Origin: Bacillales bacterium UBA7029
GTDB taxonomy: Bacteria > Bacillota_I > Bacilli_A > RFN20 > CAG-826
NCBI GenBank assembly: GCA_002494205.1
Contig: DLBE01000024.1
Location: 1 to 41,611 of the forward strand
DNA: 41,611 nt
Direction: 5' to 3'
Positions 2,493 to 27,722 of the stretch are shown one piece after another. The translations under genes and the position numbers were made by a program. Each line of letters opens with the position of its first letter. Position 1 is the stretch's first letter. The notes under the pieces are model-generated. The model searched no databases, was not told the DNA's origin, and saw only the letters and a list, made by a program, of their open reading frames with translations.

Positions 2493-3172
2493 TATCCTCT
2501 TAATTCGCAAGGAATAAGTGGAGATAAAATATTCTTAAAATGAATGGCTTCTTCGAGAGAAATCTCATGGAGGCCTTTTCTTATAACGCCTTCTCTATCA
2601 ACAAATTTTTGTAGATAAATCTTCTTTGCACCTTTAACCAAATCACGCATTTCTCTAATTGATTCTTCAGTGTGAAATTCTTTAACTAAAGTAGTGCGAA
2701 ATTCGTAATTTACCCCAGAATTCTTGAGAATTTCTATGGATTTCTTAATATTTTCGATATTTACTCCTGGGCATCCTGCAGTCTCTGCATACATCTTTTC
2801 AGAGTTCTTAACATCCATTGCAACATAGTCTAATAAACCTTCATTAATTAGGTCTTCTAATACGTTTGGATGAGTTCCGTTTGTATCTAACTTAATTAAA
2901 AACCCGAGTTCCTTTACTTTTTTAATTCTATTTTTAAGTTCCGCCATTAAAGTTGGTTCTCCACCAGTAAAAACGACGGCGTCGATTAATCCTACTCTAG
3001 ATTTAAGAAATTCAAGAATCTCTTCAAACGGAATTGGAGTGTTTGCATTTAAGACCGATTCGCCGTTATGACAAAAAGGGCATCTGAAATTACATGCGGG
3101 TGAAAATAGTACTATGGACACCTTTTCATCGTAGTCTAGCAATGAAAACTTATCGATTCCAACGAATTCCAT
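2489..3172 (-). CDS. nrdG: anaerobic ribonucleotide reductase activating protein (radical SAM)
   Basis: CNFRCPFCHN radical-SAM cluster motif near the N-terminus. Size is 227 aa. It is convergent with the nrdD unit, with a 4-nt overlap of the stop regions. Confidence 0.9.
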   Translation of the reverse strand: MEFVGIDKFSLLDYDEKVSIVLFSPACNFRCPFCHNGESVLNANTPIPFEEILEFLKSRVGLIDAVVFTGGEPTLMAELKNRIKKVKELGFLIKLDTNGTHPNVLEDLINEGLLDYVAMDVKNSEKMYAETAGCPGVNIENIKKSIEILKNSGVNYEFRTTLVKEFHTEESIREMRDLVKGAKKIYLQKFVDREGVIRKGLHEISLEEAIHFKNILSPLIPCELRGY

Positions 3173-3178
3173 ATTTTT

Positions 3179-3207
3179 ATTTTAAAATAAAACATATGGT
3201 GATTCAA
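3179..3207 (-). promoter_or_regulatory. sigma-70-type promoter of nrdG with leaderless geometry
   Basis: On the minus strand: TTGAAT (3207-3202), a 17-nt spacer, TAAAAT (3184-3179), then exactly 6 nt to the ATG at 3172. No Shine-Dalgarno sequence. Confidence 0.55.
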
Positions 3208-3260
3208 TCTTAATATAAAATTTGTTGCGATTTATATAAAATATAAGTAGACTAGTATAT

Positions 3261-6200
3261 ATGAAGTTTAAAAATAAATCCTCGTTGTGGGTTGCGGCAC
3301 TTTCGGTTGTTGCTGCTTTTTCATTTGGACTAGTCGCCAATGTAGCCTTTAGTAAAACTGAAACGACACAAGTGTCTGCATCAGCCGATCAAGGCACTTG
3401 GACTTATAGTGATAATAAACTGTCCTTTTCTTATAAAAGTGGTACATCTCGTGCATTTGTAAATAGAACAGAGCAAACTGCTGTTAATGGCCTTGGGGAT
3501 GGGAAATATGCTATTACCTACGAGGTTTGGGGATATAGTTCCGGAGCTATGCAGCCTGAAGAAGATTTATTGGAAACTATTGAACTTGAATTTATTTGGG
3601 GAAATTACGTTGAATCAGATACTTATGGAACAATAACCGCTTATCCAGCTGATATTCCTGGTCTTAGTTCAACAACGGCTTATTCAATAGATGTCCTTGT
3701 TGAGCCAACTGGTGATATGGCACTAACTTATCCTACTTGGAGATACAATATTGTAAATCAGAATTTTGTTTATTACGTTGACAGCCAAAATACTTATGAT
3801 GCGGAGCTCACGACAATTTCATTTATTAATTTTGGCCAAGACAATCGACATAACTATATAAGATTAGATTACGATGTCACGGATAATGGTAGCCTTGTAA
3901 GAAGAGATAGTATTGGCCTATATCAAGCCTCTGTTGTTAGATACGGAGAATCTACTGGAGATGGAGCTGTTTCTGGGACATATAAGAATCAAACAGTAGC
4001 CGAACTAGGGACCGGACAAATTAGTATTGATGAAGTAACTATTGCAAATGGCTTCAATTACATAGAGATTAATAACGAAGTTATTAAATATAATGAAAAT
4101 GATGACAGTATTCAAACAGTCTTTGTCACTGAAGCAACTTATAATACTGATTCATCAACCGCTAATATTTTTTACGTTTTAAGAGATGAATCGGGTCAAG
4201 AGACTGAAAATACAGAAGAGGCTGTTTTGAGAAATGCTTCTAAATCTTATGATGACGAATTGCAACGCTATTATATAACCGGAACTACAGGTGATTTTGA
4301 TGGAATAGATGAAACTGCAAGTATTACGCTATGCACAAGTAACCTAAATGAAGTCTATAATTATCATTACGTTGTTCATTTTGATGGAAATGGTGCAACA
4401 AGCGGTAGGATGAGTGACGATCCTTTTACATCTCAAGATTACTCAGTAGATTACGAACTACCAGAGTGTAGTTTTGAAAGAGAAAATTATACTTTCTTCG
4501 CCTGGTCTCTATCTGAAGATGGAATGATTACTATCAAACCGCACGAAACAAGAAATATAACTTATTCTGAAGAAGGAGTAATCTTCTACGCTATATGGGG
4601 ACGAACCATTACTTTTGATTCTAATGGTGGCAATGGATATATGGAACCTATAGTTGTTAAGGAAGGTTATAATGAAGTTCCGTCTTGTGATTTTACAAGA
4701 GACGGTTACGCTTTTAAATGCTGGGCTGTTGGATCTCCGACCGGCATCGAAATCAATGCTGGTAGTAGGGTTAATGTCGATGCCAACTATGTGCTTTATG
4801 CTGTTTGGGAACAATCAGGCCCTGTCCAGCATGAAGGAATGTGGTACGATGAAGAACTTCATAAATTGAGGTTTTACAATACTGATTTAGCAAAGGAACA
4901 GGAAGTACAACTTGAAGCTAAAGTTTTAGATTTTGGTCCTAACACTGCTGAAACGAGAGCAGAACTCGTTGCTTGCGTTTTAGACAAGGGCGAACTTTTG
5001 GGTGATTATTCCTATGACATGCGTTCATTTACTGTTGGTGTTGATAACAGTAAAAGATATATTTCAGGACCATTAGATTTAGATAATGGAGAAGGGTGTC
5101 AACAAGTTAAGTTATATCCTGAAACTTTCTACTATAATACCTTCAAACCAAATCAACTTAACTATGCAGAAGGCTACAATCAAATTTTCTATGTTAATGA
5201 AAATTATGAAGGCACACCTCTAGAATTTGAAATTGTTGAATTTAATGAAATTACAAGAGTTTTTAGAATCGAGGCTTATGCAGGTGATGTCACTGGCGAA
5301 CAAGATTTAATTGAATTCACTTTCGAATTAACTGACGGCGTTGTTTTAGAAGGCGATTTAACGCAAGACGCACAACTTATTGAAGGTTATTTGGAAGATG
5401 TTGGTAGAAAAGTAAAACTTAATGTCTATGACATTCAATATAATTCTTTAGAAGAAGAAGCAATTACTTCTGAAACAATTGAAAATATTACCAACGCAAT
5501 GGATGCGGTGGAATTAAGTCCAGATCAAATTAGCCAAATCAATCAAAAGATTGAAGATAATAAAGAACAGATTCCTGATTCTACAGGCGGCAAAATTGCG
5601 GATGCTTTAACTAATACAGCCCCAACTCTTTCTGATGATCCAGAAGTTTTAGAGGCACAAAAAGACGTTATTGTTGCAGTTGTCGAAACTGTTATTGAAG
5701 TTGAAACAAATAGGCCAAGTGATATTGGTCAATCTATTAGAACTGATAGTTCTTTACCTAAAAATGCTGGAATTTCTATTGAACAAGAAGTCAGAGAATT
5801 CTATGAACTTCAAATGGCAAACCTCATTGGTGAAGAAAAAGCTAATAGAAGAGCTATTTTAAGAGCGCCAACCGCTACCGATTATAAGATTGATGTTTCT
5901 GGTAAAACCAAAGAAGATCTTGAACAAGATTTAATTGATTATGGAACAATGACTGAGTTTATCGATGATTCGGTTCAAAACATGAACACAGCTGGTCGTA
6001 AGCTTAGATCTTGCTCTGGCGAGGCTATGAAAGTCGAAGTTAAGCGCACCGTGGTTAAGATTAAAACCTCTTCATTTAGAAAGTTTGATAAAGAAGCAGC
6101 TGATTTGCAATTTGCATATGACGTGCATAATGCAATGATGCTTCACTTACAAGAAGTCGTTGTTACTGAACTTGAAAAAGATTACAAGCCAAGCGGCAAC

Positions 6201-6623
6201 AAGGAAAAGGACGAACAATATCAGAAAGAACTTGCAGCATGTAAAGACATTGAGTCCTTTACCGAAATCGTTATTGAAGTCTTAAGACAAAAATATAATG
6301 CAATCACAGATTCTAATGTTAAATATGAAGATTTCGTTGAAATAAGCGATGATGGAAAATATTCAGGAATTTACTGGGATATTTTCGAAGCATGGTGCTT
6401 AGATAAACCATGTCCATATCCAATTACATTCCAAGAATTAACAGATGCAACAGTTGATACAACAACTCAAAATGCTAGAAGTTTTGAATTAAATACTAAG
6501 ATGACAAATACTGAAGTTGTATTTACAGCAGCATTTGTAGGTGGTGGAGTAGCATTTATTTCATTAGCTGGTGTTCTTGGATACATTTTAAAGAAAAGAA
6601 GCTTAAAGGGGGTAAGTAAATAA
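3261..6623 (+). CDS. large surface protein (1120 aa) with signal peptide, two Listeria-Bacteroides (Flg_new-type) repeats and a C-terminal TM anchor
   Basis: N-terminal hydrophobic signal SLWVAALSVVAAFSFGLVANVAFS. Two tandem ~70-aa repeats (VVHFDGNGATSG...YAIW and ITFDSNGGNGYM...YAVW). C-terminal TM FTAAFVGGGVAFISLAGVLGYIL followed by KKRSLK. No LPXTG motif. Confidence 0.7.
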   Translation: MKFKNKSSLWVAALSVVAAFSFGLVANVAFSKTETTQVSASADQGTWTYSDNKLSFSYKSGTSRAFVNRTEQTAVNGLGDGKYAITYEVWGYSSGAMQPEEDLLETIELEFIWGNYVESDTYGTITAYPADIPGLSSTTAYSIDVLVEPTGDMALTYPTWRYNIVNQNFVYYVDSQNTYDAELTTISFINFGQDNRHNYIRLDYDVTDNGSLVRRDSIGLYQASVVRYGESTGDGAVSGTYKNQTVAELGTGQISIDEVTIANGFNYIEINNEVIKYNENDDSIQTVFVTEATYNTDSSTANIFYVLRDESGQETENTEEAVLRNASKSYDDELQRYYITGTTGDFDGIDETASITLCTSNLNEVYNYHYVVHFDGNGATSGRMSDDPFTSQDYSVDYELPECSFERENYTFFAWSLSEDGMITIKPHETRNITYSEEGVIFYAIWGRTITFDSNGGNGYMEPIVVKEGYNEVPSCDFTRDGYAFKCWAVGSPTGIEINAGSRVNVDANYVLYAVWEQSGPVQHEGMWYDEELHKLRFYNTDLAKEQEVQLEAKVLDFGPNTAETRAELVACVLDKGELLGDYSYDMRSFTVGVDNSKRYISGPLDLDNGEGCQQVKLYPETFYYNTFKPNQLNYAEGYNQIFYVNENYEGTPLEFEIVEFNEITRVFRIEAYAGDVTGEQDLIEFTFELTDGVVLEGDLTQDAQLIEGYLEDVGRKVKLNVYDIQYNSLEEEAITSETIENITNAMDAVELSPDQISQINQKIEDNKEQIPDSTGGKIADALTNTAPTLSDDPEVLEAQKDVIVAVVETVIEVETNRPSDIGQSIRTDSSLPKNAGISIEQEVREFYELQMANLIGEEKANRRAILRAPTATDYKIDVSGKTKEDLEQDLIDYGTMTEFIDDSVQNMNTAGRKLRSCSGEAMKVEVKRTVVKIKTSSFRKFDKEAADLQFAYDVHNAMMLHLQEVVVTELEKDYKPSGNKEKDEQYQKELAACKDIESFTEIVIEVLRQKYNAITDSNVKYEDFVEISDDGKYSGIYWDIFEAWCLDKPCPYPITFQELTDATVDTTTQNARSFELNTKMTNTEVVFTAAFVGGGVAFISLAGVLGYILKKRSLKGVSK

Positions 6624-7513
6624 TGGCAGACGAATATGGAAATAAAAACGCGCCTGAATTTGCCTCTCAGAGCGAAAATAAAATTGTAAAAGAGAATCTT
6701 TTCGCCAAAGAAAACCAAATAGTTTCTGAAAACGTTGAGGCAAAAGAAAATCTTGATACAGTAGGCAAAAAACGTGGGGCTAATAAGAAAGCTAAGAAGC
6801 AAAGGCTTTCTGTTCTTTCAGCCGGACTTGTTGGCGTTGTTAGTTTTGCGCTTATTGGCATCACGTCCCTTGTAAATGTCAAGATGAAAGCTGAATTTGA
6901 TGATAAGAAAGTTGCTTATGAAGATGGCAAGATTTCTTATTCATTATCAGTCAAGGAAATGACTGAAAAAGAAACTTTATCAATCTATGTTATTAGAGAT
7001 AACGTTAAACTTGAGAAAATTGAGTTAGTTGATGAAGATGGCGATGGTTTAATTGAAGGTAAAATAGATGTTGATAAAACATATATTGATGAAAAATTTT
7101 CAAGCGGAAAATCTGAAGAAGTTCAATATAAACTTGATTTGAAAGGTGTTGTTGGACTTGAAGTAGAAAGATACTTTGATAGTGTCACAGTAAGCATTAA
7201 TCAAATTGTGTCTGCATTCTACTATGTAGAAGGACATTGTAATTGTGGTGTTGATGGCTATTACTACTTCACCATGGTTTTCGAAGATTTAGAACATATC
7301 TTTGATAACTTTAATGCCTATATTGTCGACGATTATGGCAATGAGGCACATTGTACGTTTAGTGACAATTTATATGAAGAACAAAAAATCTATGTTCATG
7401 ATTTAGAAAGTTCTCATGGTAAATTGGTAATCAAATACACTGCCGACGATGATCAAACCGAAGGCAAGGATGAATTTGGATTTTATACTATTGAAACCGA
7501 AATTAATATGTAA
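6623..7513 (+). CDS. type II membrane protein of unknown function, translationally coupled to the large surface protein
   Basis: TAATG stop/start overlap at 6621-6625. The N-terminal region is low-complexity with reiterated KEN/SEN motifs. It has a single TM (LSVLSAGLVGVVSFALIGITSLV) and a ~215-aa ectodomain. Confidence 0.6.
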   Translation: MADEYGNKNAPEFASQSENKIVKENLFAKENQIVSENVEAKENLDTVGKKRGANKKAKKQRLSVLSAGLVGVVSFALIGITSLVNVKMKAEFDDKKVAYEDGKISYSLSVKEMTEKETLSIYVIRDNVKLEKIELVDEDGDGLIEGKIDVDKTYIDEKFSSGKSEEVQYKLDLKGVVGLEVERYFDSVTVSINQIVSAFYYVEGHCNCGVDGYYYFTMVFEDLEHIFDNFNAYIVDDYGNEAHCTFSDNLYEEQKIYVHDLESSHGKLVIKYTADDDQTEGKDEFGFYTIETEINM

Positions 7514-23093: not shown

Positions 23094-23786
23094 ATGCAAT
23101 ATACAAAAGATGTTGAAAATATGTGCAAAGTTAATTGTGGCGCCTCTCACGGATGTGCTCCGATTCCTGAGGAAGGAAAATGGGTCTATTCGAGAAAGAT
23201 TGAAGATATTAGTGGTTTTACCCACGGTATCGGATGGTGTGCTCCACAACAAGGTGCATGTAAAATTACCTTAAACGTTAAAAAAGGAATTATCGAAGAA
23301 GCTTTAATTGAAACAATCGGTTGTTCTGGTATGACACACTCAGCTGCTATGGCTAGCGAAGCTATTGTTGGTAAAACTGTTCTTGAAGCATGTAATACTG
23401 ACTTAGTTTGTGACGCTATCAACACAGCTATGAGAGAATTGTTCTTACAAATTATCTATGGTCGTACACAATCAGCTTTCTCAGAAAACGGATTAGCTGT
23501 TGGTGCAGGTCTTGAAGACTTAGGTAAAGGACTCCGTTCACAAGTTGGAACTCTTTACGCAACAAAAGAAAAAGGTCCACGTTACCTTGAATTAACCGAA
23601 GGTTACATTACTTCTATGGCTTTAGATGAAAATAATGAAATCTGTGGTTATCAATATCTTTCACTTGGTAAATTCACTGACTTCTTAAAGAAGGGTGATA
23701 GCCCAGAAGTCGCCTTAGAAAAGGCAAAAGGCCAATATGGTCGTTATAACGATGGTGTCAAGTTCATTGACCCACGTAAGGAATAG
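23094..23786 (+). CDS. IscU/NifU-N-like iron-sulfur scaffold-type protein, partner of the GGGtGRT protein
   Basis: AGGAGG Shine-Dalgarno 8 nt upstream. Scaffold-like Cys pattern (WCAPQQGAC ... IGCSGMTHSAAMASEAIVGKTVLEA). Arg is coded almost only by CGT. Confidence 0.75.
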   Translation: MQYTKDVENMCKVNCGASHGCAPIPEEGKWVYSRKIEDISGFTHGIGWCAPQQGACKITLNVKKGIIEEALIETIGCSGMTHSAAMASEAIVGKTVLEACNTDLVCDAINTAMRELFLQIIYGRTQSAFSENGLAVGAGLEDLGKGLRSQVGTLYATKEKGPRYLELTEGYITSMALDENNEICGYQYLSLGKFTDFLKKGDSPEVALEKAKGQYGRYNDGVKFIDPRKE

Positions 23787-23798
23787 GAGGCAAGAACA

Positions 23799-24803
23799 AT
23801 GGCTTTATTTGAAGGTTATGAAAGAAGAATCGCTCAAATCAATAAATGCTTAAACGAGAATGGTATTGCCTCAATCGAAGAAGCAGAAAAGATTTGTAAA
23901 GACAAAGGCTTAGATGTTTACCAAATGGTAAAAGATATCCAAGTTATTTGTTTCGAAAATGCATGCTGGGCATACACTGTTGGTGCAGCCTTAGCAATTA
24001 AAAACAAAGCAAAAGATGCTGCAGAAGCAGCTAAATGGATTGGTGTTGGTTTACAATCATTCTGTATCCCAGGATCAGTCGCTGATGATAGAAAAGTTGG
24101 CTTAGGCCACGGTAACTTAGGTGCAATGTTACTTTCTGAAGAAACCAAATGCTTTGCATTCTTAGCAGGTCACGAATCATTCGCCGCTGCTGAAGGTGCT
24201 ATTGGTATTGCAAAGAAAGCAAACAAAGTCCGTAAAGAACCATTAAGAGTTATCTTAAACGGTTTAGGAAAAGATGCAGCTAAGATCATCGCAAGAGTAA
24301 ATGGATTTACCCATGTTGAAACTCAATTTGACTATTTCACTGGTAAAGTTAAGATTGTTAAAGAAACCAAATACGGCAACAATCCAGATAGATTAGCAGT
24401 TCGTTGCTATGGCGCAGATGATGTCCGTGAAGGTGTTGCAATTATGCATCTTGAAGGCGTTGATGTTTCTATTACTGGTAACTCAACCAACCCAACCAGA
24501 TTCCAACACCCAGTCGCAGGTACATACAAGAAAGAATGCATTGAACAAGGTAAGAAATACTTCTCAGTCGCATCTGGTGGTGGTACCGGTCGTACACTTC
24601 ACCCAGACAACATGGCAGCAGGTCCAGCTTCATATGGTATGACAGATACAATGGGTCGTATGCACTCTGATGCTCAATTCGCAGGATCAAGCTCAGTACC
24701 AGCACACGTTGAAATGATGGGCTTAATAGGTATGGGTAACAACCCAATGGTTGGCGCTACAGTCGCAGTTGCTGTCTCTGTCGCTCAAGCATTAGCAAAA
24801 TAA
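23799..24803 (+). CDS. GGGtGRT family protein (uncharacterised)
   Basis: The family-naming motif GGGTGRT is at nt 24576-24596 (ASGGGTGRTLHPDN). AGGAGG Shine-Dalgarno upstream. 334 aa. Confidence 0.85.
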   Translation: MALFEGYERRIAQINKCLNENGIASIEEAEKICKDKGLDVYQMVKDIQVICFENACWAYTVGAALAIKNKAKDAAEAAKWIGVGLQSFCIPGSVADDRKVGLGHGNLGAMLLSEETKCFAFLAGHESFAAAEGAIGIAKKANKVRKEPLRVILNGLGKDAAKIIARVNGFTHVETQFDYFTGKVKIVKETKYGNNPDRLAVRCYGADDVREGVAIMHLEGVDVSITGNSTNPTRFQHPVAGTYKKECIEQGKKYFSVASGGGTGRTLHPDNMAAGPASYGMTDTMGRMHSDAQFAGSSSVPAHVEMMGLIGMGNNPMVGATVAVAVSVAQALAK

Positions 24804-24847: not shown

Positions 24848-24910
24848 CTAACACTCATAGAGTGCAAGTGCTTGACTCTCTCTTTAGAATTAAAAAAGAG
24901 GAGGATCTTT

Positions 24911-25126
24911 ATGGTTTGTCCACATTGCAATAGTGAGAATGTTCAAGTAAATACAACGACCTATAATAAAAGTCAGAGTAGATCTTTCTTATGGAACTTG
25001 ATAATGAAAGTGATTACAAGCGGACTCTGGTTAATTTGGATGCTTGTAAGAAAAAAGAAAGAAGTGCTTGTGACACAAACAACTGCTGTTTGCCAAAACT
25101 GTGGTTATAGTTGGAAAATTAAATAA
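24911..25126 (+). CDS. small zinc-ribbon membrane protein (71 aa)
   Basis: GAGGAGG Shine-Dalgarno 7 nt upstream of the ATG at 24911. CPHC ... CQNC pairs flank one TM (FLWNLIMKVITSGLWLIWMLV). The ORF-track TTG start at 24872 is rejected. Confidence 0.6.
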   Translation: MVCPHCNSENVQVNTTTYNKSQSRSFLWNLIMKVITSGLWLIWMLVRKKKEVLVTQTTAVCQNCGYSWKIK

Positions 25127-25270: not shown

Positions 25271-25383
25271 TTTAATTTAAATTTAGGCGCTGGAAATGGC
25301 GCCTCTCATTGTGAAAATAAAGAAATTTCAATGTCTTTTTGTGTATGTATTTTGCCATTTTTGATATATTGTAGTATATTAAA

Positions 25384-25412
25384 TTGACACTTTTAGGTAC
25401 ACAAACTATAAT
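25384..25412 (+). promoter_or_regulatory. consensus sigma-70 promoter driving a leaderless DUF3990 transcript
   Basis: TTGACA (25384-25389), a 17-nt spacer, TATAAT (25407-25412), then exactly 6 nt to the ATG at 25419. No Shine-Dalgarno sequence. Confidence 0.75.
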
Positions 25413-25418
25413 ATTGAC

Positions 25419-26075
25419 ATGGAAAGAATTATCTATCACGGTAGTGAATTTATAATTGAAAAGCCTTTATATGGTAAAGGTAATATTCATAACGATTATG
25501 GACTTGGTTTTTACTGTTGTTCAAATAAAGAACTCGCAAAAGAATGGGCCGCTAAGAAAACAGGGTCAGGATTTATTAATAAATATAGTATTAGAGACGA
25601 TAGGTTAAAAATTCTCGACTTAACAAAACCACCACACAATGACGTTTTGCATTGGATCGCTTTATTAATGCATAATCGTGAACTCTCAAGTGATTTAAAA
25701 GATAATTTCCCAAAAGAACTAAAATATTTGGAAGAAAAATATCTCATTGATGTCTCGGATTATGACATTGTAATAGGTTATAGAGCAGACGATAGCTATT
25801 TCCGATTCCCAGAATCTTTTGTAAGAAGTGAGATAACATTAGAGTCACTTAACAAAATTTTTCAGGCTGGAGATTTAGGAAAGCAATATGTCTTAATTTC
25901 TCAAAGAGCATTTAATTTGGTTCATTTTTTAAGTTACGAGGAAGCTCTTGAACAGTCGAAAATTGATTATTATAAAAGAAAAAGCGGCGCTGATAAATTG
26001 TATGCTGATTTATTGAAGGAAGATCGTTATTTAAAAGGAACAAGACTTAGAGACCTAATAACTGATTATGAGTAA
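25419..26075 (+). CDS. DUF3990-family protein (ADP-ribosyltransferase-fold-like), candidate toxin/effector
   Basis: N-terminal IIYHGSE, then DYGLGFYCCS...AKEWA, then DIVIGYRADDSYF. These match my recollection of DUF3990 and resemble the HGS / GxGxY motifs of H-Y-E ADP-ribosyltransferases. Confidence 0.75.
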   Translation: MERIIYHGSEFIIEKPLYGKGNIHNDYGLGFYCCSNKELAKEWAAKKTGSGFINKYSIRDDRLKILDLTKPPHNDVLHWIALLMHNRELSSDLKDNFPKELKYLEEKYLIDVSDYDIVIGYRADDSYFRFPESFVRSEITLESLNKIFQAGDLGKQYVLISQRAFNLVHFLSYEEALEQSKIDYYKRKSGADKLYADLLKEDRYLKGTRLRDLITDYE

Positions 26076-26661
26076 TTTTGATGTGAAAAAAGTTAAAGAA
26101 ATATTTTGTAGATTATTTGTTTTAGCGACCGAAAATAAAATGAATTTGGAAGCATTCACAAATCATCTTGCTAAAAGCAACTTTGCTAGTAGTATTGAAA
26201 ACAATTCATTTTCAGATTCTTTTAATCTTCCTCTTGAAAAAGTTTTTTATGAGATTACTGGCAATAACATTGATAAGGATACGAGTTTTGGAGTTTTTAA
26301 TGATGCTTATTGGTGTGGATATTCCTATTTTGAGATTCAACAACGAACAAGGAAGTCATTCGCTTTAATATTCTTAAAATTACCATTTGCAAAACTTATA
26401 GATTTATATCCGATATACCATGAAATGGATATCACATCACTTTTGGATTTTTTTAATAAACTTAATGCAGATAAAACGATTTTGCGATTGCTTTGTCAAA
26501 AAAATAACTGTTCTTTAAAAGAATTAAGCAATAAAACGGGCATTAATAAGGCAACACTTGCGAAATACAACGCAAACGACGAATATCTTCTTAAAGCATC
26601 ATTCAACAATGTATATAGAATTGCTAACTATTTTGATGTACCATACTCATTATTTTTGTGA
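26068..26661 (+). CDS. protein with C-terminal XRE-type helix-turn-helix, candidate antitoxin/regulator of the DUF3990 gene
   Basis: 8-nt overlap with the DUF3990 stop (ATGAGTAA). The C-terminal segment CSLKELSNKTGINKATLAKYNAND...NVYRIANYFDVPYSLF is HTH_XRE-like. The ~130 N-terminal aa are not recognised. Confidence 0.65.
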   Translation: MSNFDVKKVKEIFCRLFVLATENKMNLEAFTNHLAKSNFASSIENNSFSDSFNLPLEKVFYEITGNNIDKDTSFGVFNDAYWCGYSYFEIQQRTRKSFALIFLKLPFAKLIDLYPIYHEMDITSLLDFFNKLNADKTILRLLCQKNNCSLKELSNKTGINKATLAKYNANDEYLLKASFNNVYRIANYFDVPYSLFL

Positions 26662-26801: not shown

Positions 26802-27722
26802 ATGTCAAAATATAGAGAAGTAAAAATAGTAGATAATTTCTATCAAAATAGTTTGTTTTATCCAATGCCGACGGTTGCAATTTCAACCTTAGCAGAAGAT
26901 GGATCTACAACAATTGGAGCCTATTCTTTAGTGTTTCCGTATTATATTGCTGGAAAAGATTATTATGCGATGATTTTAGAATGCAGAAACTCATCAAATA
27001 CTGCGCAGAACATATTAAGAACAGGCAAATGTGCTTTGAATTTTATCTTTGATAACAGAAAAGATTTTAAAGAACTTGTCCGCCTAGGATTTCCTGGTAA
27101 AACTCCTCAAGAAAAGATGAAGGATTGCCACTTCAAATTAATTAAAGGAGAAGCTGAAGGCGAAAGACCATTAATTTTAGAAGATGCATACCAAGTTCTT
27201 GAATGCACTTGGGACGAATCTTTAGAAAAAGGTTATGAATCAAAGAAACATATTGGTGAATTAGAGGGTGTAGAACCTCCTTACAAAGATTTCAATGGTA
27301 TTACATCAAAATTCGGTTGTCACTTTATCTTAAAAATAGACAAGATTTTGATGGTTGAGAAATTCGCGGATAACTTAAAGAATGGTTTAAAGAGAAATTC
27401 TTTCCCTAAAGTACCAGTTGATTATGGTTATCACGATTCTAAAAACTTTTGGTATATGAGATTTGGTGGTCTTAAACCAGTTTCAGAACCAATCGCTGCG
27501 ACTAATGCCGGATCTGTTGAATCGGTTATGTATTGTGCGGAAAGATTAGATACAAAAGTTAAATTTACAAAAGAAGCGTGTGAACTATACGTAAAAATTC
27601 CTCGACCATTTATGAAAGCGGCTTTAACTCAAATTGCAAAAATAGCCGAAGAGAACGGAATAATGGTTATTGATAAAGCAGCAGCCGAAAAGATTGCCGA
27701 AATAAGAAAAAAGTCAAAATAG
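26802..27722 (+). CDS. flavin-reductase-like (split-barrel FMN-binding) domain protein with a C-terminal extension
   Basis: LFYPMPTVAISTLAEDGSTTIGAYS ... TAQNILRTGKCALNF resembles flavin reductase domain proteins. GAGG Shine-Dalgarno upstream. Confidence 0.55.
   Translation: MSKYREVKIVDNFYQNSLFYPMPTVAISTLAEDGSTTIGAYSLVFPYYIAGKDYYAMILECRNSSNTAQNILRTGKCALNFIFDNRKDFKELVRLGFPGKTPQEKMKDCHFKLIKGEAEGERPLILEDAYQVLECTWDESLEKGYESKKHIGELEGVEPPYKDFNGITSKFGCHFILKIDKILMVEKFADNLKNGLKRNSFPKVPVDYGYHDSKNFWYMRFGGLKPVSEPIAATNAGSVESVMYCAERLDTKVKFTKEACELYVKIPRPFMKAALTQIAKIAEENGIMVIDKAAAEKIAEIRKKSK

Follow-up and report, generated by a model that had tools for sequence, protein, structure and literature searches.

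Each of the toxins with an ADP-ribosyltransferase (ART) fold, among them DarT, ParT, the RES toxins and CmdT, has brought to light a new target as well as a new kind of immunity or persistence in bacteria. By analogy, the characterised systems that come functionally nearest to the locus described here are RES-Xre, MbcTA, ParST and NatRT. That locus is a cassette of two genes in a stretch of 41,611 nt (41.6 kb) from Bacillales bacterium UBA7029 (GCA_002494205.1, contig DLBE01000024.1), to which we refer as the window. Gene A encodes a DUF3990 protein, and gene B encodes a partner with an XRE-type helix-turn-helix (HTH) domain. An earlier note on this DNA had read the pair as a candidate new toxin-antitoxin or defence module, in which an ADP-ribosylating toxin is accompanied by a DNA-binding antitoxin that autoregulates the operon. 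The cassette is an uncharacterised unit of a probable ART-fold toxin and an HTH partner that has already been catalogued as a defence candidate, and on balance we favour its being a self-contained, horizontally mobile two-gene unit of ~1.3 kb that belongs to the type II toxin-antitoxin or abortive-infection kind.

The C-terminal tip of Rhs proteins is a position reserved for toxins. DUF3990 forms this tip in T6SS (type VI secretion system) Rhs effectors (PMC4524185, PMC10763514, PMC12165300), and Pfam lists the family in its ART clan (PMC7955679). Three PADLOC defence candidates, PDC-M42, PDC-M10 and PDC-M13, are among 145 untested 'guilt-by-embedding' systems nominated on the basis of cassettes embedded in BREX, DISARM, type I restriction-modification (RM) and Hma loci; the PDC-M42 cassette is FAM_00403>>FAM_03189>>FAM_00360, and FAM_00403 is common to all three candidates (Payne et al., bioRxiv 10.1101/2024.01.29.577857). 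Gene A matched two PADLOC models of PDC-M42A (PDLC04641, E 5e-38; PDLC04640, E 2.8e-32) and, more weakly, M13A/B and M10A. Since the M10, M13 and M42 models all match gene A, we infer that FAM_00403 is DUF3990. The pair is less novel than the label 'candidate new' implies, as DUF3990 cassettes are listed in PADLOC under these three names. The window's gene B had no PDC-M42B match at E < 1; partners retrieved with the gene B family profile (E down to 1e-18) matched PDC-M42B across their N-domain, with E-values of 1e-12 to 2e-3.

Gene A and the ADP-ribosyltransferase fold

Gene A matched the Pfam DUF3990 profile (PF13151) with an E-value of 1.2e-38 and a score of 132.7 bits (gathering cut-off 32.2), over residues 4-170 of the protein and positions 2-152 of the 152 in the profile. 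NCBIfam returned no model for gene A. A Pfam scan detected a weak match to ART-PolyVal (E 0.03) and no RES domain, no DarT (DUF4433) and no macrodomain. An exhaustive profile search identified 2,254 clusters at 50% identity that match the DUF3990 profile at E ≤ 0.001, and residues were counted in a diverse set of 123 full-length sequences, each representing a 50%-identity cluster. The motifs previously read in gene A (IIYHGSE, DYGLGFYCC and YDIVIGYRADD) are all present, and the proposed active-site residues, His7, Tyr32 and an acidic residue near YDIVIGY, proved to be conserved in the family, the acidic residue being Asp116. His7 was found in 121 of the 123 representatives, Ser/Thr9 in 120 and Arg122 in 122, while Gly8, Gly28, Gly30, Phe31, Tyr32, Asp116 and Gln156 were found in every one. 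Asn25, Asp26, Trp43, Tyr56, Trp79, Arg87, Gly120, Ala123, Asp124, Asp125, Tyr127, Phe128 and Phe134 are likewise invariant or nearly so.

An AlphaFold model of gene A (predicted local distance difference test (pLDDT) 80, predicted template modelling score 0.75) has the order of elements that an ART fold is expected to show, strand-strand-helix-strand-strand followed by a further strand. Two features of the H-Y-E clade are present: a His in an H-G-[ST] motif that ends strand 1 (HGS, at the end of strand 2-9), and a Tyr in a G-x-G-x-Y motif on strand 2 (Tyr32, on strand 31-34). The third, a catalytic Glu where strand 5 begins, is not; the invariant residue there is Asp116, before strand 117-121 (IVIGY). 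His7, Tyr32 and Asp116 occupy the positions of the H-Y-E triad in the model, a placement taken from the order of its strands. ART toxin families with an H-Y-D pattern have been described, and the model supports such a variant for gene A, in which strands 1 and 2 carry His7 and Tyr32, respectively, and Asp116 precedes strand 5.

We compared this model with solved and predicted structures using Foldseek. Nearly all of the top 27 matches in the PDB were the catalytic domains of PARP4, PARP1, PARP2 and tankyrase or the RES toxins VPA0770 (8gug) and NatT (8qnl), at E-values of 0.04-0.6. Among viral models, the best annotated match was a polyvalent-protein domain (E 1.8e-4), with ART-PolyVal-like, PARP-like and 'NAD(+) ADP-ribosyltransferase' entries among the others. 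At the level of sequence, the ART-PolyVal hidden Markov model (HMM) was matched below threshold by 30 of 77 diverse DUF3990 members (E ≤ 0.05; best 1.2e-4). Several observations weigh against an ART assignment. The Foldseek statistics for the PDB are weak (E 0.04-1, template modelling (TM) scores 0.3-0.36), the pLDDT of the model is no higher than 80, the candidate acidic residue is Asp where the canonical one is Glu, and searches of PDB sequences with close (A1) and diverse (A3) DUF3990 profiles returned no meaningful relative. Moreover, our literature search found no paper characterising DUF3990 or DUF3791, and no measured activity, toxicity or binding. Of the earlier reading of gene A as an ART fold with NAD-binding motifs, the motifs and the residue conservation stand; the order of strands in the model agrees with the fold, although the statistics against solved structures are weak. 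We conclude that the identification of gene A as an ART-fold enzyme is well supported, but not proven.

An enzyme of this kind would use NAD+ (nicotinamide adenine dinucleotide) to inactivate an essential macromolecule by ADP-ribosylation, with NAD+ consumption alone as a less likely alternative. In that alternative, gene A would degrade NAD+ rather than transfer ADP-ribose, and arrest would follow from NAD+ depletion, as with MbcT and NatT. We consider this unlikely. RES toxins carry an R-E-S pattern, whereas gene A has an H-Y-D pattern and no Pfam RES match; its best fold and HMM matches are transferases (PARPs and ART-PolyVal), and the large conserved surface motif RADDSYF, together with Gln156, would suggest a macromolecular substrate. 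On the other side, VPA0770 and NatT are among the fold matches, the replacement of the catalytic Glu by Asp could favour hydrolysis, and RES toxins, too, are paired with Xre-type HTH antitoxins (PMC6436930).

Gene B and the pairing of the two genes

A scan of one genome per species yielded 80 loci, mostly in metagenome-assembled genomes (MAGs) from gut, rumen and faeces. The loci are labelled Bacilli, Acholeplasmatales, Erysipelotrichaceae, Clostridia, Fibrobacter, Victivallales, Bacteroidales, Treponema and Coriobacteriia; L-numbers below denote related loci used for comparison. A gene B homologue lies directly downstream, on the same strand, of 79 of 83 DUF3990 genes, and the two genes overlap by 8-38 nt in most loci. 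Of the four exceptions, three are truncated by contig ends, and the fourth (L068) has a divergent HTH partner with an N-domain that matches PDC-M42B. Co-occurrence of DUF3990 with an HTH partner had been proposed as a check on the pair, and we found no clear case of absence; the data support strict co-inheritance of the two genes. In the window they share 8 nt (ATGAGTAA), exactly as had been claimed, and gene B runs from 26068 to 26661 (197 aa). Gene A is the more conserved member in all 76 comparable pairs (mean identity 48.6% versus 30.3%).

Two cases have unusual arrangements. The 448-aa protein P0318 carries an N-terminal DUF3990 and a C-terminal Xre-like HTH in one polypeptide, which could be a true fusion of toxin and partner or a frameshift artefact. 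An Erysipelotrichaceae MAG (L009) has two diverged cassettes, at 2574-3858 and 5995-7258, 3.4 kb apart, and in both of them TATAAT is followed after 6-9 nt by ATG.

Only residues ~135-197 of gene B matched Pfam, and all the families matched were HTH families (HTH_19, HTH_26 and HTH_3). For residues 1-130 we detected no Pfam family and no fold match in the PDB, and a sequence search of the PDB with the partner profile gave nothing meaningful. Gene B is therefore what the earlier note took it to be, an unrecognised domain of ~130 aa fused to a C-terminal XRE-type HTH. Its model is all-helical (pLDDT 93.5), and residues ~138-197 superpose in Foldseek on the HTHs of C.BclI, CapH, SinR, CylR2 and HipB (target TM 0.6-0.8 for the first four; root-mean-square deviation ~2 Å). 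The most conserved part of the partner is the non-HTH N-domain; across the 79 partners, Trp82, Tyr114 and His118 are invariant or nearly so (His118 in 79/79), as is Glu119 (78/79). Since the alignment of distant partners with gene B takes in both the HTH and the motifs of the N-domain, and since the Fibrobacter partners (L022, L035 and L046; 141-156 aa) have no HTH, we regard the N-domain as the core of the partnership.

Other partners differ in length or in context. In L022 (4857-7090), an open reading frame (ORF) of 377 aa that looks HipA-like ends 8 nt before the start of DUF3990, so that the cassette is possibly part of a HipA-type operon there; in the neighbour census described below, two of 140 ORFs match HipA_C. 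Five Bacilli-type partners (L004:5803-6900, L010:2472-3512, L012:6650-7756, L013:6653-7759 and L017:3279-4289) are 336-368 aa long and have an extension of ~150 residues after the HTH, for which Pfam scans of L012 and L017 gave no significant match. We also considered the N-domain as a relative of DUF3791, and rejected this possibility: gene B and ten distant partners had no such Pfam match, the hhalign probability was 0.1, and the resemblance reduces to an eight-residue Y-x3-H coincidence (compare Tyr114 and His118) that is not significant.

We regard as the most probable arrangement, with rather more confidence than doubt, a mobile toxin/partner cassette with an ART-fold enzyme, an N-domain that restrains it and autoregulation through the HTH. 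Gene B would be translationally coupled to gene A through the 8-nt overlap, and its N-terminal helical domain would hold the enzyme in check. Family membership, residue conservation, obligate pairing, conservation and covariation of operators, and mobility were computed. For the NAD+ chemistry, toxicity, neutralisation by binding and a trigger such as phage, this scheme is what we infer. The invariant His118-Glu119 counts against a purely restraining N-domain, since it suggests that the partner may be more than a passive binder. A bolder version, which we think quite improbable, is that DUF3990 is an H-Y-D branch of the ARTs with a target new for ART toxins, such as a nucleic acid or a translation factor, and that the partner's N-domain, with His118-Glu119, is a de-modifying enzyme or a sensor that frees the toxin when phage infects. 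If this were true, the cassette would be a new reversible ADP-ribosylation switch, widespread in gut and rumen bacteria.

It is very unlikely, in our judgement, that the genes are no toxin pair at all but serve a mobile element as its regulatory or counter-defence module. The HTH partner would then be a mere controller, like a C-protein, and the ART enzyme would modify host or competitor factors, as proposed for the ART domains of phage and conjugative polyvalent proteins, or the HTH partner itself. The conserved non-HTH N-domain, present without an HTH in L022 and L035, would be left without explanation; strict pairing and overlap would not be accounted for; the cassettes are mostly chromosomal, among housekeeping genes and outside recognisable phages or conjugative elements; and DUF3990 serves as an Rhs toxin tip. 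What speaks for a controller is that the closest HMM and viral fold relatives of gene A are ART-PolyVal and polyvalent proteins, that the HTH resembles RM controller proteins and CapH, and that homologues, although rare in viral-labelled records, are encoded by seven such contigs, which are unannotated and faecal.

Promoter and operators

A perfect promoter that would place the transcription start on the ATG of gene A had been described, and the promoter sequence was confirmed. TTGACA (25384-25389) and TATAAT (25407-25412), separated by 17 nt, match the consensus at 12 of 12 positions; the combination is unique in the window on either strand, with 0.04 expected by chance (shuffles). The -10 box lies 6 nt from the ATG (25419), and we found no Shine-Dalgarno (SD) motif ahead of that ATG. 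An in-frame stop codon is located at 25380-25382, with no further start codon between it and the ATG. The same promoter geometry is seen in L001, L003, L005, L009, L010, L012 and L017. More generally, among 15 Bacilli-type modules whose identity to gene A is 44-95%, ten lack an SD and have a -10-like hexamer that ends 6-9 nt upstream of the ATG, and in nine of those ten the distance is exactly 6 nt; the same was seen for 8 of 92 other ORFs of these loci. Elsewhere, a normal SD is present in 56 of 81 modules.

We suggest that, in the Bacilli-type clade, transcription from the consensus promoter with its predicted start on the ATG would give a leaderless mRNA, and that gene A is probably translated from it; the geometry is conserved in the clade, and the position of the start is predicted. 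Two observations weigh against a leaderless start. First, Clostridia homologues start from a normal SD, and because of this we regard the leaderless start as a feature of the clade and not as part of the mechanism. Second, a weaker promoter-like site, TTGCCA-17-TATATT (25352-25380, 10/12), is located upstream and could yield a leader of ~32 nt without an SD. The -10 box of this site sits in the central palindrome described below, an arrangement like that of Clostridia-type modules. The promoter region also contains a 13-nt direct repeat (TATTAAATTGACA / TATAATATTGACA, 25377-25419, 30 nt apart), the second TTGACA of which ends on the A of the gene A start codon; we set this repeat aside as a regulatory element, as it is not conserved in relatives. 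Further upstream, in the AT-rich spacer 160 nt past an 84-aa zinc-ribbon ORF, is a GC-rich hairpin (AGGCGC-tggaaatg-GCGCCT, 25285-25304); it lacks a T-tract, and no terminator was called there.

The earlier note had proposed as operator a 10-bp-phased direct repeat, TATATT-gtag-TATATT. These letters are indeed present at 25365-25380, but they belong to a degenerate palindrome (ATATATTGTAGTATAT) within a 68-bp dyad rather than to a phased direct repeat. Two relatives, L001 and L003, carry a perfect palindrome (ATATACTGCAGTATAT) at the same position, -55 to -39. The outer elements TTTGTGTA and TACACAAA are perfect inverted repeats, each located 18 nt from the central palindrome, which is thus the exact centre of the dyad; the right arm falls inside the spacer between the -35 and -10 boxes. 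This layout recurs in L001, L005 and L009, where GTGTA and TACAC keep their distances from the ATG despite unrelated flanking DNA. When the best 16-bp palindrome upstream of each of 81 distinct modules was scored, the mean was 13.3, compared with 6.8 in shuffles and 6.9 upstream of other ORFs. The palindromes often coincide with the -10 box or are present in two copies; those of Clostridia-type modules are typically placed over the -10 box, with a second copy ahead of the SD.

The half-site differs by lineage and tracks the recognition helix of the HTH. Helix LRTLQQYE goes with half-sites TACTTCT..AGAAGTA, RQIQLFEQ with TATCGCT..AGCGATA, LNTIRAYE with TAATACC..GGTATTA and LRMIQQYE with TATCTCT..AGAGATA; in the window's clade, TLxKYNA goes with ATATAyTGyAGTATAT. 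Shared descent accounts for part of this covariation, which weakens the case for autoregulation. We nonetheless favour it, because dyad symmetry and position persist while the half-site changes with the recognition helix, and this comparison supports the earlier proposal that the HTH partner autoregulates the operon. From these patterns, we consider it very probable that the operators at the partner's own promoter are its binding sites; its XRE HTH would occupy a set of palindromes straddling the promoter, and transcription of the pair would be repressed by its own products. Since each lineage has its own combination of operator and recognition helix, these combinations also provide a natural set for studies of HTH specificity.

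Table 1. Features of the two-gene cassette, in coordinates of the window
Feature	Coordinates	Strand	Basis
Gene A, 218-aa DUF3990 protein, putative ART-fold toxin	25419..26075	+	Pfam, PADLOC, structure model, fold matches
Gene A key residues: His7, Tyr32, Asp116, RADDSYF 122-128, Gln156			residue conservation
Gene B N-terminal all-helical domain (aa 1-134), putative toxin-binding/neutralising	26068..26469	+	model, conservation
Gene B C-terminal XRE-type HTH (aa 135-197) and stop codon	26470..26661	+	HTH_19, HTH_26, HTH_3; Foldseek
Consensus sigma-70-type promoter, TTGACA-17 nt-TATAAT	25384..25412	+	12/12 match
Left outer operator half-site TTTGTGTA, putative	25338..25345	.	perfect 8-nt inverted repeat with 25398-25405
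Central imperfect 16-bp palindrome ATATATTGTAGTATAT, putative main operator	25364..25379	.	position kept in relatives
Right outer operator half-site TACACAAA, putative, within the -35/-10 spacer	25398..25405	.	inverted mate of 25338-25345

Genomic setting and known systems

The cassette is horizontally mobile and patchy, and close relatives of the host lack it. Related loci are similar to the window in DNA sequence only within 25359-26640, and there is no third gene before 26802. In metagenome contigs that carry the flanking gene (26802-27722) at 90-96% identity, both cassette genes are absent. The interval upstream of this homologue varies among close relatives (including L087 and L088, upstream of the 6001/5776 match), and by eye we recognised in it a 96-aa ORF resembling a HigA-type antitoxin (L086:2028-2318) and an 88-aa ORF resembling a Phd/YefM-type antitoxin (L090:5068-5334). 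The interval upstream of the flavin-reductase-like gene behaves as a hotspot for small accessory modules. In a search for an empty site, exact-protein look-ups of the flanking genes returned the same strain only, and no clean insertion junction can be defined because the whole interval is rearranged in close relatives. Distant short DUF3990 genes are paired with DUF3791 beside rep genes on small Clostridium plasmids.

Two supporting features that had been claimed were not confirmed. AGA and AGG make up 0.71 of the Arg codons of the module and 0.68 of those in the other 34 ORFs of the window (per-gene mean 0.64, sd 0.20); since this share equals that of the neighbours, the Arg codon usage is not distinctive. 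GC content is somewhat lower in the module (0.298 versus 0.348). We found no gene-fragment scar beside the module, and the adjoining 84-aa ORF (24872-25126) is intact and zinc-ribbon-like. Rfam and tRNA scans of the region gave no matches. The window's flanking genes are metabolic (GGGtGRT, NifU-like, flavin-reductase-like and acyl-CoA ligase); at 23094-24803, a NifU-like gene (230 aa) and a GGGtGRT-family gene (334 aa, E 2e-192) form a tight pair, both from poorly characterised families.

It is conceivable, though we lean against it, that the cassette is a dedicated anti-phage (abortive infection) system. The N-domain would sense a phage cue and release the ART enzyme, which would then, in the manner of DarT and CmdT, modify the translation machinery or the nucleic acid of phage or host. 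The proposal overlaps with the mobile toxin/partner cassette that we favour, and differs in that defence, not addiction or stabilisation, would be the selected function. It draws on the matches of gene A to PDC-M42A, M13A/B and M10A and of distant partners to PDC-M42B, on the nomination of these candidates from BREX, DISARM, type I RM and Hma loci, on the patchy and mobile distribution, and on a few neighbours that are Fic/SoFic, HipA, AbiEii or PD-Lambda-2_B-like. However, the PDC systems are explicitly untested candidates, PDC-M42 is a three-family cassette, the window's partner has no direct PDC-M42B match, and the window's flanks are metabolic. Enrichment in defence islands had been suggested as a check, and the neighbour census (140 ORFs from 42 loci) does not bear it out: it is heterogeneous (HTH_3 9, HAD hydrolases 4, Fic 3, HipA 2, AbiEii 1), its 25 commonest Pfam/PADLOC families include no RM or CRISPR family, and housekeeping genes make up most of the neighbours listed. 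What directly surrounds the cassettes does not resemble a classical defence island.

Taken together, most of what had been noted in the sequence holds, and the comparisons and the models partly support the earlier interpretation, which we take to be the best available reading and which gains strength in four respects: fold, residue conservation, co-inheritance of the genes and autoregulation. DUF3990 would then be a sizeable ART family that extends across gut and rumen phyla and also serves as a T6SS Rhs toxin tip, and we know of no substrate or structure for it. The cassette offers a compact entry point to this family, with catalytic candidates in His7, Tyr32 and Asp116, an obligate partner with an invariant His-Glu, and a predicted operator and promoter.

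The cassette resembles several described systems in part. PDC-M42 shares its component A with gene A, and its component B matches orthologous partners in other phyla. However, PDC-M42 is a cassette of three families for which no mechanism was proposed, whereas the window has two genes, with an HTH fused to a B-like domain, and its own partner is too diverged for a direct PDC-M42B match. By profile and by fold, DUF3990 comes closest to ART-PolyVal, a domain of the polyvalent proteins of phages and conjugative elements, and the Rhs effector tips, which share its Pfam family, act as delivered toxin domains; both are domains of giant secreted or injected proteins, whereas the window's DUF3990 stands alone with an intracellular partner. 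On plasmids of C. botulinum and C. tetani, DUF3791-DUF3990 pairs comprise small overlapping genes that adjoin a replication gene, and their DUF3990 is of the same family (~27% identity), in which H, Y, D and ADD are retained. In these pairs the DUF3990 protein, at 161 aa, is shorter and has no C-terminal helices, and the partner is a 74-aa DUF3791 protein, encoded upstream and without an HTH. On the C. botulinum plasmid pCLI (L084:3777-4712), genes for DUF3791 (74 aa), DUF3990 (161 aa) and a 75-aa hypothetical protein lie beside the replication gene; the first two overlap, and the third is 1 nt downstream.

DarTG and CmdTAC likewise have a small H-Y-E-like ART toxin in a mobile operon, and a nucleic-acid target is plausible here too; the window's cassette has no DUF4433 or macrodomain match and no chaperone component, and its partner bears an HTH. 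RES-Xre, MbcTA, ParST and NatRT combine an NAD+-using toxin of the ART superfamily with an Xre-type antitoxin in a small autoregulated operon, as we propose for the window. They differ in that the window's toxin has an H-Y-D pattern and no RES Pfam match and is encoded first. The RES antitoxin is encoded upstream and consists of an N-terminal Xre HTH and a C-terminal toxin-binding domain, whereas the window's partner carries its HTH at the C-terminus, behind a domain that matches no non-HTH Pfam family significantly.

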